NCBI GenBank assembly: GCA_031961525.1
Contig: JAVRLI010000003.1
Coordinates: forward strand, 1 to 33,759
Direction of reading: 5' to 3'
Length of the DNA: 33,759 bases
Source of the DNA: Thermoplasmatota archaeon
GTDB lineage: Archaea > Thermoplasmatota > Thermoplasmata > Thermoplasmatales > ARK-15
Shown: in pieces, positions 17,738 through 33,759 of the stretch
Layout of the letters: every line of letters begins with the position of its first letter
How positions within the stretch are numbered: the first letter of the stretch is position 1
The notes under the pieces: model-generated
Database searches by the model: none
What the model was told of the DNA's origin: nothing
Seen by the model: the letters and a program-made list of their open reading frames with translations, nothing else
Made by a program: the position numbers and the translations under genes

Positions 17738-18249
17738 TCCTTCACCCTTTCAATTATATACATTGCTATTTCCTCAGGCTTTTTATCCTCCGTGTTTATC
17801 ACAAGATCGTATATTGAAAGATCCCTGAAATCTATGTTATAATACTTTTTATACCTTAAAATTTCACTCTCCTCCCTCATTCTCAGCATATCCATGCTTA
17901 TATTTTCCCTTTTACCAATCCTTTCCAGTCTTGTATTCTCATCCGCATTTAAAAATACCTTGAATGCCTTTATATCATTAAGGTATGCAAGCCATCCCGC
18001 AAGCCTTGAATCAACAACAACGTTATCCCTTGTTTTCAATATTTCCAGAAGAATTGAATCAAGTTTTTTATCAAATTCTGGATCCTTTTCAGCATATTTG
18101 CTGAATTCCTCAAGGCTCATATTATTTTCCTTTGCCATTTCTCTGAATATATCACCACCTGATACAAGATCATAGTTTAATTTTTTACATAGAATTTTTG
18201 AAACAGTTGTTTTTCCGGATCCTGGAGGGCCGCTTACCGTTATAATCAT
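17725..18249 (-). CDS. cmk: Cytidylate kinase (archaeal type)
   Basis: ITVSGPPGSGKTT P-loop, GDIFREMA, SRLAGW, RYKKYYNID. Confidence 0.93.
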   Translation of the reverse strand: MIITVSGPPGSGKTTVSKILCKKLNYDLVSGGDIFREMAKENNMSLEEFSKYAEKDPEFDKKLDSILLEILKTRDNVVVDSRLAGWLAYLNDIKAFKVFLNADENTRLERIGKRENISMDMLRMREESEILRYKKYYNIDFRDLSIYDLVINTEDKKPEEIAMYIIERVKEWKK

Positions 18250-18875
18250 ATTTTTTCAAGCCTTTTCCTGAATTCATAAAGTCTGAAGATATAGGAAATA
18301 AAATATCCAAGAGAGGCTGTGAAAAAAGAATAAAGAATTATCCAATATGGGAAAAAGGAAATTCCACCTGTAATATCAACATTGGATGCCCAGGGAACAT
18401 TGAAGTATTTAACACTGGCATTTAAAAGGAAATCGTAAAGCCAAGTGAAAATCGCAATGATGAATATGAATGTAACAATCATGGGCTTCATCTGATCCCC
18501 TGATACCTTCATCTGTTCCTGCATTACCTTAGCCTGAATCTTATTGTACTTTTCAATCTTTCCCATGTCCCTCTGTCTGTAGGCTTCCCTGATTTTCTGT
18601 GAAAGGTATTTTGTTTTTTCCTGTATTCTCGCCATCTGGAACCAGTCCATGAAATAGTGCCTTGCATATGTATTTACTATTGTTAATAAAATACCTGTTG
18701 CAATAATTGTTAATATGGGATATTCTCCGTTGAAACCAAAGATTGGATTGAAAATATAACCCATACCTATGGCAAGCGCATTTCTTAAATCTGGAAAGAG
18801 AAAAATGGTCATAACTACCATTATGAAAACGAAGTACAAGCCGGTCATTCCCATGGGGTTTTTTTGGTCAGCCAT
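18246..18875 (-). CDS. DUF106 / EMC3-TMCO1 (Oxa1 superfamily) membrane insertase
   Basis: TM, coiled coil, KPMIVT..TM, WIILY..TM; conserved position after secY-adk. Confidence 0.88.
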   Translation of the reverse strand: MADQKNPMGMTGLYFVFIMVVMTIFLFPDLRNALAIGMGYIFNPIFGFNGEYPILTIIATGILLTIVNTYARHYFMDWFQMARIQEKTKYLSQKIREAYRQRDMGKIEKYNKIQAKVMQEQMKVSGDQMKPMIVTFIFIIAIFTWLYDFLLNASVKYFNVPWASNVDITGGISFFPYWIILYSFFTASLGYFISYIFRLYEFRKRLEKI

Positions 18876-19419: not shown

Positions 19420-21228
19420 TCATCCCTCAAAAAACTGTCTTATTACAGGATGCATTTCCATAAGCTGCTCCCTTCCCATTGCCTCATAGAACTGTATCAA
19501 TATACCTACTGTAAGCAAAACACCCGTGCCGGTTGTATTACCAACCGTTCCTATCAAACCAGCAAATGCTGCAAGTGCACCAACAGCAGCACCGCTGAAT
19601 ATTGTTATTGGTGGTATGTATTTGCTAAGAACACTCTCAATAACCTTTGGTTCCCTCCTGAAACCAGGTATCTGCATACCGCTGCTTATAATTTGCTTTG
19701 CAACAGCCTGTGCATTCATATTTGTTGTATCTATCCAGAACTTTGCAAAAAGAATGCTCATTCCTATCATAAAGAATGTGTATGCAAGCACATGGATTAT
19801 ATTCTGAAGAACGGTGTGACCAAGCAGGGCGGCACCGTATATAGATGGTTCCATGATTGGTAAAAGCCATTCACCCAGACCATTTATGTTGTTCAGATAG
19901 AATGCAAGTCCCCCTATAGGTGTGGTCTGCTGTATTCCATACATCTGGGCCTGCTGTGGTGTGGGATAAACACCAAGCCAGGGGTTATGGCCAAGAATTG
20001 GAACTTTTGAAAGTGTTGGGTTTGTCCAGAAAATCAAAGTCCACATGGTAACATTGGCAAGCAATGCTGAGGTCAAAATAACAGGTATGTTTGATGCATA
20101 AAGAAGCTTAATTGGATATCTTCCCCTTGCACCCCTTACCCTTTCATGAGCAAGGGGCAATTCAATCTTGGTGCTTTCTGTCCAGGCAACAAGGAAGAAT
20201 ATTATTGTTGTTCCAATAAGTGCTATTATTGGATTTGGCTGACCAAAAATAAGCGTTTCAATCCTTCCATTGTAGAGATCGCTTGCTGAAAAGTGTGAGA
20301 GTAAATATACAGTCTTTGGAATAACACCGCTTGGTGGATTCATCACCGAAAGTGGCTGTCCAGGATGGGGAGGGATCCAGTTTATTGTTCCTGTTATTAA
20401 GGCCTGGGAAACACCTGCAGCTATGAAGAGAGAGATACCTGATCCTATACCCCATTTACTCACGAGTTCATCCATAAGAAAGACAACATATGAACCGAAG
20501 AAAAGCTGTAAAACAATGAATGTCTGTGCAAGGAACATACCATGGCTTGGCCAGATTCCATTTAACATGGAAACAAATGAATTATCCGGTGTTAAATATC
20601 CAAAAACCTGAGGTATGGCCTCAACAAAGATCATGATGATAACAAGAAGCTTCTGCACCCCCTGATACATGGCCCTGTCCTCTTCCTCACCAAGATCCAG
20701 ATTTATTAATTTAGCACCAACAAAAAGCTGCATTATTATGCTCGCCGTAACTATTGGTCCAATACCAAGATGCATGAGTGTTCCTGATGCACCTGCCATT
20801 ATTGCCCTGAAGGATGAAAAAACATCAAGCATTGTGCTCGTGTTAAGTCCATAAATGTATATGTTTGTCATTATGAAATATACAATCAATACAAGACCTG
20901 TCCATAATAGCTTCTCCCTGAACCTCACATGCCTCTGTGGCTTCTTTATTATGGGCAATTTTTCAACAAGAGGCTTTAAACCATAAAGTTTGCTTTTCTT
21001 TTCTCCCTTATATGATGCTATAAGGTAGGATAGATAATATAAAGGACCAACAAGTAATGTAAAGATTAAAGGATCAACCCAGTCCTTTTCAATGTATGAA
21101 AAAAATGATCCAAAATCAAGGATCTTTCCTGCAAGGTAATCAACATAAAAATAAAGTGTAAGGATAAAAATTAAAAGTATTACAATGCCCACTGCCCTGT
21201 TTCTCGGTATTTTTTCCGATTCAGGCAT
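19420..21228 (-). CDS. secY: Protein translocase subunit SecY (Sec61alpha type)
   Basis: EKLLWTG, GTLMHLGIGPIVTASIIMQL, DELVSKWGIGSGISLFIAAGV, YPIKLLYASNIPVIL, MQIPGFR, GTGVLLTVGI. Confidence 0.97.
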   Translation of the reverse strand: MPESEKIPRNRAVGIVILLIFILTLYFYVDYLAGKILDFGSFFSYIEKDWVDPLIFTLLVGPLYYLSYLIASYKGEKKSKLYGLKPLVEKLPIIKKPQRHVRFREKLLWTGLVLIVYFIMTNIYIYGLNTSTMLDVFSSFRAIMAGASGTLMHLGIGPIVTASIIMQLFVGAKLINLDLGEEEDRAMYQGVQKLLVIIMIFVEAIPQVFGYLTPDNSFVSMLNGIWPSHGMFLAQTFIVLQLFFGSYVVFLMDELVSKWGIGSGISLFIAAGVSQALITGTINWIPPHPGQPLSVMNPPSGVIPKTVYLLSHFSASDLYNGRIETLIFGQPNPIIALIGTTIIFFLVAWTESTKIELPLAHERVRGARGRYPIKLLYASNIPVILTSALLANVTMWTLIFWTNPTLSKVPILGHNPWLGVYPTPQQAQMYGIQQTTPIGGLAFYLNNINGLGEWLLPIMEPSIYGAALLGHTVLQNIIHVLAYTFFMIGMSILFAKFWIDTTNMNAQAVAKQIISSGMQIPGFRREPKVIESVLSKYIPPITIFSGAAVGALAAFAGLIGTVGNTTGTGVLLTVGILIQFYEAMGREQLMEMHPVIRQFFEG

Positions 21229-21649
21229 TGAGTTCTACCCCACCACCTTTCTCTTCCAGTTTCCTCCTTGCAATTTTGCTTGCCTTCATCACCCTGATTT
21301 TCATTTTTTCATCCACATCCCCTGTACCAAGTAATTTGGTATATCCTGCGGAGGAAAGATCAACATTCCATACACCATTTTCAAACTTTGCAAATCCAAG
21401 ATCGGCAAATAATTGCAACTTTTCCTGAACATCCCTGAGATTTATTGTTATATCCTCTCTGGAAGGATGATGGCTTGTGAAACCATGCCTTCCCCAGTGT
21501 TCCCTGAAGTATTTGTTTAACCATATCCATTTATGTTTACCAAGACCTGCCAGACCCTTCCCACCTTTAAGGCCATGGCCCCTTCTACCCTTCATGCCAT
21601 GGCCATGCCTTCTGTATCCCCTAAATTTTCTACCTCTGCTGTATGACAT
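21221..21649 (-). CDS. rpl15: 50S ribosomal protein L15 (uL15)
   Basis: GGKGLAGLGKHKW, GRHGF, KLLGTG; operon position. Confidence 0.95.
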   Translation of the reverse strand: MSYSRGRKFRGYRRHGHGMKGRRGHGLKGGKGLAGLGKHKWIWLNKYFREHWGRHGFTSHHPSREDITINLRDVQEKLQLFADLGFAKFENGVWNVDLSSAGYTKLLGTGDVDEKMKIRVMKASKIARRKLEEKGGGVELNA

Positions 21650-31274: not shown

Positions 31275-32267
31275 TCACACCCCCTGCTTTGATGCCCTTG
31301 AAACATATGTGATCTTTATCTCCTTTTCCTCGGTAGCATATGGCCTAACAGGATCCCTGAACCTTATTATCCTCTTTGTTGGTCCTGGAATTGATCCATG
31401 AACAAGAACATATGGATTCCTGAGTTTTCCATAATGGAGAAAACCACCATCGGGTGTAATATCCTCATCCTTAACATCCACATATTTCAATATCCTTTTG
31501 TTGTATTCTGTTCTCTGCTGGAAACCCAGCTGACCGGCCATCGGAACAGTGTACATGACCCAGTTTGGATGCCATGGTCCAAGCGTACCTATCATTCTTC
31601 TATGCTTTCTATTCTTCCTTGGTAAAAGTTTTACACCAAACCTTTTAACATGACCCTGAAAACCCTTTCCCTTTGTTACAGCAACAACATCAACAAGTTT
31701 TCCTGGTTTTGTGAAATCTGTAAAGTTTAATTCCTTACCAAGTTTATCAAGGGCGTATTTTATTCTTTCCTCAATTGTTCCTCCACCAACCCTGATCTCC
31801 ATTATTTCCGGCTTTTTCTTCGGGACACCGGATACAAGTTTCGGATTTGTGTAAACAATTAACCTTACTTCATCAACAACGCTTTTATCTATAGAATCAA
31901 CCTCGATGTTTTTCTTTGGCAATGAGATCTTTCGGGAAAGTTCCTTGTCAAGGTTGTTTGTCCATATTTCCTTTTCAACCTTCAGACCGTAGGTTGTGTT
32001 TCTGTAGAATCTTACACCCATGACCTTGAGGGGTGGAACCTCAACAACGGTCACAGGTACAGCGATCTCCTGTCCTGCTGTCTCACTTTTTTTCCTGAAA
32101 TCCACCATCATTATGTGAGTCATTCCCACCTTGTATCCGGCAAAACCCTGTATTCTCGGACCATCATCTATCTCAGGCCAGCTTGAAATTTTCGGGACTA
32201 TACTGCTGGCTCTCTTCCTCGGATAATACGCCATAGACCCATGTCTCGAATGATGCGGAGTTGCCAT
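31275..32267 (-). CDS. rpl3: 50S ribosomal protein L3 (uL3)
   Basis: GSMAYYPRKRA, GYKVGMTH, TKGKGFQG, GQLGFQQRTEYNKR, GSIPGPTKR. Confidence 0.97.
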   Translation of the reverse strand: MATPHHSRHGSMAYYPRKRASSIVPKISSWPEIDDGPRIQGFAGYKVGMTHIMMVDFRKKSETAGQEIAVPVTVVEVPPLKVMGVRFYRNTTYGLKVEKEIWTNNLDKELSRKISLPKKNIEVDSIDKSVVDEVRLIVYTNPKLVSGVPKKKPEIMEIRVGGGTIEERIKYALDKLGKELNFTDFTKPGKLVDVVAVTKGKGFQGHVKRFGVKLLPRKNRKHRRMIGTLGPWHPNWVMYTVPMAGQLGFQQRTEYNKRILKYVDVKDEDITPDGGFLHYGKLRNPYVLVHGSIPGPTKRIIRFRDPVRPYATEEKEIKITYVSRASKQGV

Positions 32268-32283
32268 TTTTTCAATCCTCCAT

Positions 32284-32378
32284 TCCCACCCGTGACACCT
32301 TACCCTGGCCCAGAATCATACAATTCGGGCCCGGAGTACGGGAATCCATATGGATTATCCCAAGATGTCTGGGTGAGA
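32284..32378 (-). ncRNA. Structured 5' leader (three-way junction) of the rpl3 operon; candidate cis-regulatory r-leader
   Basis: GC-rich island that folds by hand into nested stems UCUCACCC/GGGUGGGA and GACAUCUU/AAGGUGUC enclosing two hairpins. G-U wobbles favour the minus strand. It ends 2 nt before the GGAGG SD. Confidence 0.7.
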
Positions 32379-32406
32379 GCCTAGGTAAAAACCTTAATGT
32401 GCCCCA

Positions 32407-32416
32407 ATATAAAAAA
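32407..32416 (-). promoter_or_regulatory. Putative TATA box of the ribosomal superoperon (TTTTTTATAT)
   Basis: Archaeal TATA-like box about 25-30 nt upstream of the start of the structured leader. Confidence 0.55.
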
Positions 32417-32754
32417 TTTTACCTTGTTTAATCTTTTTATGGATCCTTGGTAAGCTATTTACTTAGGGAATTTTTTTATTTTATTGTGTACTTAAATATA
32501 ACAAAAGATCACAGGAATATTAACTTATAGAACGGACAATAATTATATCTGAAAGGCTTTTTTCATGATGAGAGAAAAATTTTATAATGAAGGGAATGGG
32601 CTAAATAAAATCAATGCGTGCATTCAGAGAATCTGAATATGAAATTCAGGATAGGTATCCATAACATGTATTACAGCTTTTTATGAAGAAATAAATGTTA
32701 ATTCAAGAAAAAATAATAATATAGATTATTTTTCTTAATTTGAGAGTGCTTAAA

Positions 32755-33759
32755 ATGGAAGAATCAACAATTGAAGAAAAAAATGATAAAATATTTGTTG
32801 TGGGTATTGGTTCTCCAGCATGCGATGTTTTGAATAAACTTTGTAAATTTAAAGATCTGCCTATTGAGAGAATTGCAATGGACGATGATCCAGAAAAATT
32901 GTTAAAAACTAATTCTGATAGAAGAGTTTTTCTTGACTGGGGACCGAGGGGTATGGGTGTATGTTCAAACCCTGTTATTGGAGAGATTGCGGCAAAAAGT
33001 GCTTCTGAAAAAATTGAAAAAGTTCTTTGTGATGCTGAAACAATTATATTTGTGGATCTTCTAGGTGGAAGAATTGGTACGGGTGCCCTGCCCGTAATTG
33101 CTGAAATTGCAAGAAAAAATGGATCCAGAATAATAAGCATTCTCACGTTTCCAGCATCCTTTGAGGGAAAGATCAGGCAAAACAATGCTGTGGAAAGTAT
33201 TTTAAAAATAAGGGATCTTTCAGACATAACATTGATAATTCCACTTGATAGAATAAGTGAAATTCTTGAAGGAAAAACAGGTTTTATTGTCTTCAGGGTT
33301 GCGATAGAGCTTGTAAAAATTGTATCAAGAGAGATGATAAGGTTTCTGGCAAAAAATGAAAACATGGAAATTTTAAATAAATATTCAGGAAAAAGTGAAA
33401 TAGGAACGGTTGGGATAGGTGAAGGAGAAAATGAAAAGGAAATTAAAAAGGCGCTGGAAATGGCATTTTCATCACCCCTTATCATAATTTCATCAGGTAT
33501 TCAAAAAATTCTTTCTGAGGAAAATGTTGATTTTTTTGGAAAACATATGGTTCCGGAAAAAATTGAAACAAGGCTGGCTCTTTTATCAATTATTTCATCG
33601 CATGAAATTGATGATGAATATATGAAAAATGCTGTGGAATTTGTCAGGAAAAGAATTTCCGGGGATGCAGAATTAATTTTTTCAAAATCCATTGACGAAT
33701 CCCTTGAAAATTTCATCCAGGTCCTCTTAATATTCATTGGAATTGACCCCTCTAAAGAA
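32755..33759 (+). CDS. Divergent FtsZ/tubulin-superfamily protein (3' truncated by window; not in ORF track)
   Basis: 335 stop-free codons from ATG 32755. Manual translation shows KIFVVGIG, RGMG..SNP..GE.AA, LGGRIGTGALPVIAEIARK.G, TFPASFEG..R...A, GTVGIGEG, A.SSPL and DAELIF...IDESLE..IQV.LI..G, collinear with FtsZ. Confidence 0.85.
   Translation, partial: MEESTIEEKNDKIFVVGIGSPACDVLNKLCKFKDLPIERIAMDDDPEKLLKTNSDRRVFLDWGPRGMGVCSNPVIGEIAAKSASEKIEKVLCDAETIIFVDLLGGRIGTGALPVIAEIARKNGSRIISILTFPASFEGKIRQNNAVESILKIRDLSDITLIIPLDRISEILEGKTGFIVFRVAIELVKIVSREMIRFLAKNENMEILNKYSGKSEIGTVGIGEGENEKEIKKALEMAFSSPLIIISSGIQKILSEENVDFFGKHMVPEKIETRLALLSIISSHEIDDEYMKNAVEFVRKRISGDAELIFSKSIDESLENFIQVLLIFIGIDPSKE

Follow-up and report, generated by a model that had tools for sequence, protein, structure and literature searches.

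We describe a structured RNA element of about 95 nucleotides (nt) encoded directly upstream of the ribosomal protein gene rpl3 (uL3) in a Thermoplasmatota archaeon (assembly GCA_031961525.1, contig JAVRLI010000003.1, positions 1 to 33,759; this whole stretch of 33,759 nt is called the window below, and its numbering is used throughout). The element occupies positions 32378-32284 of the minus strand. It is conserved and covaries, which supports its identity as a structured cis-acting leader, located at the mRNA 5' end or close to it. On balance, it is likely to represent a new family of ribosomal-protein (r-protein) leaders, widespread in Thermoplasmatota, that exerts feedback on the translation of the L3-L4-L23-L2... 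operon.

The RNA consists of a rod, formed by the helix P1, an internal loop, and the helix P2, followed by a three-way junction with two hairpins. This junction, folded by hand in the initial annotation, is reproduced by ViennaRNA RNAfold both as the minimum free energy (MFE) structure and as the centroid. The energy of -52.4 kcal/mol was reached by none of 200 dinucleotide shuffles (mean -38.8, standard deviation 3.7, z -3.71), and the complementary strand folds more weakly in absolute terms (-43.7 kcal/mol). With each of five different mRNA 5' ends, the junction was again the MFE structure (-53 to -56 kcal/mol), and these foldings revealed no conserved alternative. The coordinates and letters given earlier for P1, P2, both hairpins, and the Shine-Dalgarno (SD) sequence all agree with the sequence, as does the description of a GC-rich element in an AT-rich spacer (GC content 0.537 in 32284-32378 vs. 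0.258 in the remaining spacer, 32379-32739) that ends 2 nt before the GGAGG of the SD and 16 nt before the rpl3 ATG. The parts of the leader, with the support for each from the MFE structure and from the 68-sequence alignment considered below, are:

32371..32378, minus strand: 5' strand of P1, UCUCACCC; in the MFE structure, with compensatory changes in the 68 sequences (for instance, AU 33 / GC 21 and AU 31 / GC 17 / CG 10)
32284..32291, minus strand: 3' strand of P1, GGGUGGGA; in the MFE structure, with covariation in the 68 sequences
32370, minus strand: unpaired A of the internal loop between P1 and P2 (core CC-A-GAC); invariant in 16 family sequences, with the flanking pairs kept in 65-68 of the 68
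32292..32293, minus strand: unpaired AC of the same loop (core GUC-AC-GG); invariant in 16 family sequences and kept in the phylum alignments
32362..32369, minus strand: 5' strand of P2, GACAUCUU; in the MFE structure, the first five pairs conserved and covarying (for instance, G-C 55 / U-A 9 and G-C 39 / A-U 21)
32294..32301, minus strand: 3' strand of P2, AAGGUGUC; in the MFE structure, with covariation
32340..32361, minus strand: hairpin A, GGGA-UA-AUCC-AUAU-GGAU-UCCC, with a conserved bulge (GGG..YAAU); in the MFE structure, with double changes at all 8 pairs
32302..32337, minus strand: hairpin B with its outer ACUC/GGGU extension (32337-32334 / 32305-32302) and the bulged U32312; in the MFE structure, with covariation of the 8 modelled inner pairs; the inner part (32331-32307) is variable in sequence, while the hairpin is kept
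32279..32383, minus strand: full match to the covariance models R1 (114.1 bits) and R2 (83.4 bits, E 3.5e-18), both introduced below

Covariation was computed for 32 pairs on an alignment of 68 sequences. Standard pairs fill 87.1% of the cells, compared with 66.1 +/- 0.7 when the partners are shuffled (0/500 shuffles reach the observed value) and with 30.6-48.4% when they are displaced by 1-3 columns. For the covariation score, the observed value is 0.494, vs. 0.155 for shuffled partners and 0.054-0.090 for displaced ones. The initial annotation had staked its proposal on conservation and covariation in relatives, and changes on both sides were indeed found in 29 of the 32 pairs. By region, paired cells amount to 93.5% in P1 and the first five pairs of P2, 91.7% in hairpin A, and 84.8% in hairpin B; P2 of the window ends with three pairs that are genus-specific and are formed in 52.9% of the cells overall. 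Compensatory P1 pairs already emerge from a structure-blind alignment of the 16 family sequences (MAFFT and RNAalifold). The strand of the RNA is fixed by the many G-U pairs on the rpl3 sense strand. The invariant positions, all unpaired or at helix ends, comprise the A that faces AC in the internal loop, along with the flanking C-G and G-C pairs, one of which is replaced, in concert, by U-A in nine sequences; in hairpin A, the GGG..YAAU bulge; and in hairpin B, a bulged base. Such an arrangement, varying helices around fixed loops, is the typical signature of a recognition site.

The leader is not confined to the organism of the window. With BLAST, the three remaining genomes of the genus proved to have it 5' of rpl3 (91-99% identity), as did a second genus (72-79% identity). 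The rpl3 loci were then collected from all 16 genomes of the family, and all loci with upstream DNA were found to have the core CCAGAC ... GGGAUAA ... UCCCG ... GUCACGG, with the variant GUCAGAC and GUCACGAC in the genus g3. Within the family, P1 is altered on both strands (ACCC/GGGU, GCCC/GGGU, AACC/GGUU, and AGUC/GACU). The first covariance model, R1, built from 11 sequences and the hand-drawn structure, matched 29 of 151 genomes of the order, once in each; in the retrieved loci, all of its matches (32/32) are directly 5' of rpl3 on the same strand. Further, 80 named rpl3 loci were retrieved with a uL3 alignment. The closest one, with 76% uL3 identity, comes from a metagenome-assembled genome (MAG) titled Aciduliprofundum sp.; the other titles are Thermoplasmata, Thermoplasmatota, Methanomassiliicoccales, Methanomethylophilaceae, Poseidoniia, and Marine Group III. 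R1 matched 45 of 79 named loci, and the second model, R2, built from 68 matches, matched 64 of 79, all 64 matches being on the uL3 strand and ending before the uL3 match.

The search of rpl3 upstream regions with a covariance model, suggested in the initial annotation, thus demonstrated conservation across the phylum: R2 matched 104 of 151 genomes in the order sample (15/15 in family f1, 19/21 in f5, 68/85 in f7, and 0/26 in f3) and 90 of 151 in the phylum sample (64/101 among high-quality genomes). There is one match per genome except in G002, with a partial second match (model positions 23-73) at a contig end, and in G098, with a full-length second match of 40.1 bits on another contig. In all 28 phylum loci retrieved, as in the 32 matched with R1, the match lies on the rpl3 strand and 2-180 nt before that gene. 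Outside the phylum, R2 matched none of 121 genomes of another archaeal phylum, the one to which the Archaeoglobales MAG considered below belongs. In family f3, negative for R2, a diverged form of the leader was observed about 110 nt 5' of rpl3 in all five genomes inspected (L219-L223). It has P1, an asymmetric loop ACA / CAAC (ending ..AAC-GG), P2 changed to CGUC/GACG, and two hairpins, and its outer helix pairs a part of the SD region.

The distance between the leader and the gene differs among lineages. In the order of the window, the SD is located within the 3' strand of P1 (GGUUGGUGAU... forms) or a few bases 3' of P1, and the start codon follows 15-37 nt after the start of this strand. 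Methanomassiliicoccales-like and several other lineages have 40-180 nt, including further conserved hairpins, between the leader and the start codon. For instance, the loci titled Methanomassiliicoccales or Methanomethylophilaceae (L149, L145, L127, L134, L117, and L130, also L159, L140, L142, and L123) have 60-90 nt between the leader and the SD, containing a GCGUUAGCGAA-like word and, after it, a GAGAGUG...CUCUC stem, and an extra small 5' hairpin before P1. The conserved hairpins between the leader and the SD in loci of this type may form a second leader module.

The genomic context of the leader is that of a 5' untranslated region (UTR) preceding a long gene row. The relevant features are:

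32406..32413, minus strand: TATA-like box TTTATATT, the predicted promoter of the rpl3 operon, 41 nt 5' of the conserved CC anchor
32381..32385, minus strand: predicted transcription start zone, 3-7 nt before P1, placed from the position of the TATA-like box and the usual archaeal spacing between TATA box and start
32277..32281, minus strand: SD sequence GGAGG, 2 nt 3' of P1
31275..32267, minus strand: rpl3 (uL3), the first operon gene, with the ATG at 32267 (NCBIfam NF003261, 479 bits)

In 61 of the 68 homologous leaders, a TATA-like octamer with at most one mismatch to TTTAWATA precedes the CC anchor by 34-75 nt. From the TATA-like box and the position 5' of rpl3, we infer that the leader is a 5' UTR; no primary-transcriptome paper for the phylum stood out among those listed in our literature search. 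The SD of the window is itself predicted to be involved in pairing, its GGAG with the CUCC in rpl3 codons 3-4 (32281-32253), leaving the AUG in the loop. Other genera have different codons here and do not retain the CUCC.

Downstream of the leader, the genes are tightly packed over about 15 kb, from 32267 down to approximately 16856. Matches to NCBIfam identify, in this order, L3, L4, L23, L2, S19, L22, S3, L29, RNase P protein 1, S17, L14, L24, S4e, L5, S8, L6, L32e, L19e, L18, S5, L30, SecY, Adk, Cmk, and Cbf5. The r-protein gene row that had been read behind the leader from the letters is hence borne out; the row is a candidate single operon. In 32200-32800, no terminator-like site was found by a scan whose sigma-70 promoter part was disregarded as inapplicable to archaea, and no oligo-U tract was found 3' of the leader in the window.

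Several other genes of the window deserve mention. Two open reading frames (ORFs) of the minus strand have no NCBIfam match at 1e-5: one of 142 aa (21221-21649) between L30 and SecY, at the expected place of uL15, and one of 209 aa (18246-18875) between Adk and Cmk. In the SecY ORF (19420-21228, minus strand, 602 aa), the family match begins at residue 84; probably, either the true start is further in or the protein has an N-terminal extension. The divergently transcribed FtsZ-like gene (32740-33759, plus strand) scores 132.6 bits against the ftsZ cut-off of 295.2 and is probably a paralogue within the tubulin/FtsZ family. Its promoter and the rpl3 leader occupy one 472-nt spacer.

R-protein operons are commonly autoregulated via structured leaders, as is the S10 operon of Escherichia coli by uL4 (PMC10931766). 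We suggest that, in a similar way, an operon-encoded r-protein present in excess over rRNA would bind the invariant core, which comprises the GGG..YAAU bulge of hairpin A as well as the CC-A-GAC / GUC-AC-GG loop. Together with a stabilized P1, the protein would then keep the 30S subunit off rpl3, because the SD lies inside the 3' strand of P1 or a few bases from it (2 nt in the window). Expression of the downstream genes would also be lowered, via translational coupling or mRNA decay. We infer every step of this scheme, protein binding and repression included.

A number of observations weigh against this interpretation. Lineages of the Methanomassiliicoccales type and several others keep 40-180 nt between the leader and the start codon, so that steric occlusion of the SD alone cannot serve as a universal mechanism; by analogy, an effect on mRNA decay or processing (cf. 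PMC5499594) or on transcription (cf. uL4 in E. coli, PMC10931766) is possible. Nor did the comparisons made reveal a convincing likeness to rRNA. With the filters off, R2 produced only short trivial hairpin matches in the 23S loci of three genomes (best E 0.48, one match antisense). In an exact search, the words CCAGAC and GUCACGG were absent from the 23S, 16S, and 5S rRNAs of the same genome, the latter two having been searched by words only; one-mismatch variants of the core words (for instance GUAACGG, present both in 23S and in the loop of a 16S hairpin) are about as many as a rough estimate from base frequencies predicts. The three-way junction in domain I of the organism's own 23S rRNA, which we take to be the uL4/uL24 site, showed no likeness to the leader when inspected by eye. 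Finally, the covariation alignment was fitted to the model and leans towards the structure, and the related genomes contributing to the counts are non-independent samples.

As for the protein that could bind the leader, uL4 is favored as a first guess by precedent, that is, the E. coli S10 leader and the L4-Archaeoglobi family of Rfam, with uL3, uL22, uL23, and uL2 as further candidates. As a rough estimate, supposing that the ligand is an r-protein at all, uL4 is a plausible choice although short of an even chance, a protein other than uL4, uL3, and uL22 is a tentative possibility, uL3 is unlikely, and uL22 slightly more so. Gene context cannot distinguish uL4 from uL3, because rpl4 follows rpl3 in 133 of 142 loci; it is offset by 222-261 nt in four more, five loci are too short, and no operon split was found among the 142.

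A weak lead to the ligand is provided by hairpin A. In the genome of the window, both of its strands (GGGA-UA-AUCC / GGAU-UCCC-G) resemble the internal loop of a long-range helix, presumably H61, with which 23S domain IV begins (GGGG-AUAA-UCGA / UUGA-G-UCCC-G by the Rfam consensus structure; one strand at about 1743-1762 of the organism's own 23S); across six genomes, only the YAAU next to the helix is shared. In E. coli, the placement of H61 depends on uL22 and bL32 (PMC11723945), and uL22 is encoded by the sixth gene of the operon. There is a small chance that the leader is a sensor of large-subunit assembly, in which hairpin A, with its GGG..YAAU bulge and closing UCCC-G, imitates the internal loop of this helix and uL22 or uL3 gates the 15-kb operon. 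Such a sensor would be ancient and phylum-wide, with a ligand from among the r-proteins never seen as autoregulators.

Among the alternatives to feedback by an r-protein, the one that retains a minor but appreciable probability is a structured 5' UTR having no specific r-protein ligand, which sets the half-life of the mRNA or has to be removed by an endonuclease before rpl3 is translated. In Methanolobus psychrophilus, processing in the long 5' UTRs of r-protein operons is reported to free the ribosome-binding site and to stabilize the mRNA (Qi et al. 2017, PMC5499594). The SD of the window is predicted to be mostly paired: over the five 5' ends, the probability of being unpaired is 0.01-0.26 for G32281, G32280, and G32278, whereas for A32279 (0.34-0.85) and G32277 (0.15-0.86) it varies with the 5' end. 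The SD region is covered by the outer helix in family f3 as well. However, the partner of the SD in codons 3-4 of the window is not conserved, and neither masking nor stability as such would need the unpaired A / AC loop and the YAAU bulge, which are invariant across the phylum.

It is improbable that the leader acts at the level of transcription, that is, as an RNA that contacts RNA polymerase or an elongation factor and secures or attenuates read-through of the ~15-kb operon. Analogues of such an element are leader attenuation by uL4 in E. coli and the processive antitermination RNAs of bacteria; we know of no transcription-acting RNA of this kind in archaea. The location right at the head of so long an operon with closely spaced genes would suit this role, in many lineages the leader is too distant from the SD for direct occlusion, and E. 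coli uL4 affects transcription besides translation (PMC10931766). On the other hand, neither a terminator-like site (in 32200-32800) nor an oligo-U tract after the leader was found in the window, and the closeness of the SD to P1 in the order of the window indicates translation.

A two-state switch, in which internal segments complementary to the SD (CUCC, UCCAU, and AAUCC) would pair with it when the protein does not hold the junction, had been envisaged in the initial annotation. The segments are indeed present in the window, inside hairpins A and B, but they are not kept outside its family: in most other lineages, hairpin A reads GGGCAAUGC.... As the junction also persists with all five 5' ends, these observations provide no evidence of a second fold, and we regard the switch as very unlikely.

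We assign an equally low probability to a riboswitch or another sensor of a small molecule or ion that reports the growth state. A 5' UTR that folds into a three-way junction and carries conserved unpaired nucleotides would be compatible with it, the protein ligand itself being only proposed. Yet Rfam riboswitches gave no match to the leader at any E up to 10, the junction folds stably in the absence of a ligand and showed no conserved alternative fold, and the element, with one copy per genome, is tied strictly to one r-protein operon. Riboswitch classes usually control several genes of one pathway.

A non-functional RNA, be it a chance GC-rich palindrome, a mobile repeat, a small upstream ORF, or a DNA-level site, is hardly credible given the phylum-wide compensatory changes, the strand-specific G-U pairs, and the single copy of the element. 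In particular, the sole full match of the leader in its own genome is itself, the next being a 15-nt word with E 0.45; it is therefore no repeat, and a miniature inverted-repeat transposable element, which the initial annotation had considered, is rejected. A 25-codon ORF (ATG 32349, TGA 32274-32272, minus strand) does run through the leader, starting in the loop of hairpin A, but it is dismissed for the lack of this ATG in close relatives such as the g4 genus sequences. We also rejected a kink-turn, or L7Ae site. The kink-turn consensus has a three-nucleotide bulge followed by tandem sheared G-A pairs; in the leader, the A opposite AC is flanked by C-G and G-C without tandem G-A.

If feedback by an operon-encoded r-protein, the reading that we prefer, is correct, the leader would be of interest in several respects. 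Very few archaeal r-protein leaders are described in the sources cited here, and for the L3-L4-L23-L2 operon, only L4-Archaeoglobi was proposed and rated borderline (PMC7247131). The present leader combines strong covariation with a location in the promoter-to-SD spacer, occurs in most of a phylum, and heads the largest r-protein operon. The phylum appears to include cultured organisms, since there are complete single-contig genomes among the matches and the titles include Aciduliprofundum, Thermoplasmatales, and Methanomassiliicoccus; therefore the leader would provide a testable case of the balance between r-protein and rRNA synthesis in archaea. It would also offer a new module of RNA-protein recognition, built around a small invariant core, whose natural variants (the changed P2 of family f3, and the short and long forms of hairpin A) are suited for studying how such sites evolve. 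The family could enter Rfam and serve genome annotation.

Comparison with known leaders starts from Rfam, to which the initial annotation had referred, including its L4-Archaeoglobi family. The cmscan search with Rfam 15 gave no match in the whole window at the gathering thresholds and none in 32100-32600 at E up to 10. No Rfam leader family matched in 14 Thermoplasmatota-type rpl3 loci (for RF03135, L4-Archaeoglobi, none at E up to 1). As a positive control, RF03135 scores 49 bits, against the gathering threshold of 34.5 bits, on L133, the rpl3 locus of the Archaeoglobales MAG. No description of the present leader was found in the ribosomal-protein-leader literature, the search not extending to subscription journals and the supplement of PMC7247131.

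RF03135 is the closest parallel. Among the 20 new motifs of Eckert and Weinberg (2020), only four are archaeal, and one of these, RF03135, is a candidate leader upstream of the same operon (rplC, rplD, rplW, rplB...) in Archaeoglobi, rated borderline ('?') by its authors in Table 1 (PMC7247131). In its Rfam consensus, an outer and a second helix are likewise separated by an internal loop and followed by two hairpins, and the first hairpin begins with GGGU..AU, vaguely like GGGAUAAU in the present leader. The core is different, CUGAC..GUCAG with ACGCG in RF03135 and CC-A-GAC / GUC-AC-GG here, and R2 finds nothing either in the L133 genome or in the 121 genomes of its phylum. Matches to RF03135 were obtained in 38 of 41 genomes, and 20 loci (L195-L214) were retrieved; in 18 of the 20, RF03135 is 351-375 nt 5' of rpl3, whereas the present leader is situated in the promoter-bearing spacer next to the SD. 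In L133, the match (1038-1125) falls inside an ORF of 261 aa (710-1495), and the conservation of RF03135 may therefore be partly protein-coding. The RF03135 model also matches the control genome of Haloferax volcanii. Homology of the two leaders is rejected as unproven, because the models do not cross-match and RF03135 lies within an ORF at a fixed distance from rpl3. With the borderline rating added, these sequence comparisons make the present leader a separate and better supported family, although of the same functional kind.

The E. coli S10 leader is, similarly, a long structured 5' UTR heading an operon with L3, L4, L23, L2, S19, L22, S3, and L29, and is subject to feedback by the operon product uL4, to which the feedback suggested here would correspond (PMC10931766). 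It differs in its narrow distribution, being described from some gamma-proteobacteria, and in acting with NusA at a terminator (PMC10931766); no terminator-like feature was seen in the leader region of the window, and the first gene is that of L3 rather than S10.

Finally, the uL1 mRNA site of methanococci, S15-Halobacteria, S15-Methanomicrobia, eL15-Euryarchaeota, and the L7Ae kink-turn leader are of the same functional kind, each being a structured mRNA site at the start of an r-protein gene that is thought or was shown to bind a protein (PMC10931766, PMC7247131, PMC5539422, PMC6298567). They precede other genes, have other structures, and were not matched by cmscan. Of the four archaeal motifs listed in Table 1 of PMC7247131, three are named after class-level lineages; compared with these names, the spread of the present leader over most of a phylum looks wide.

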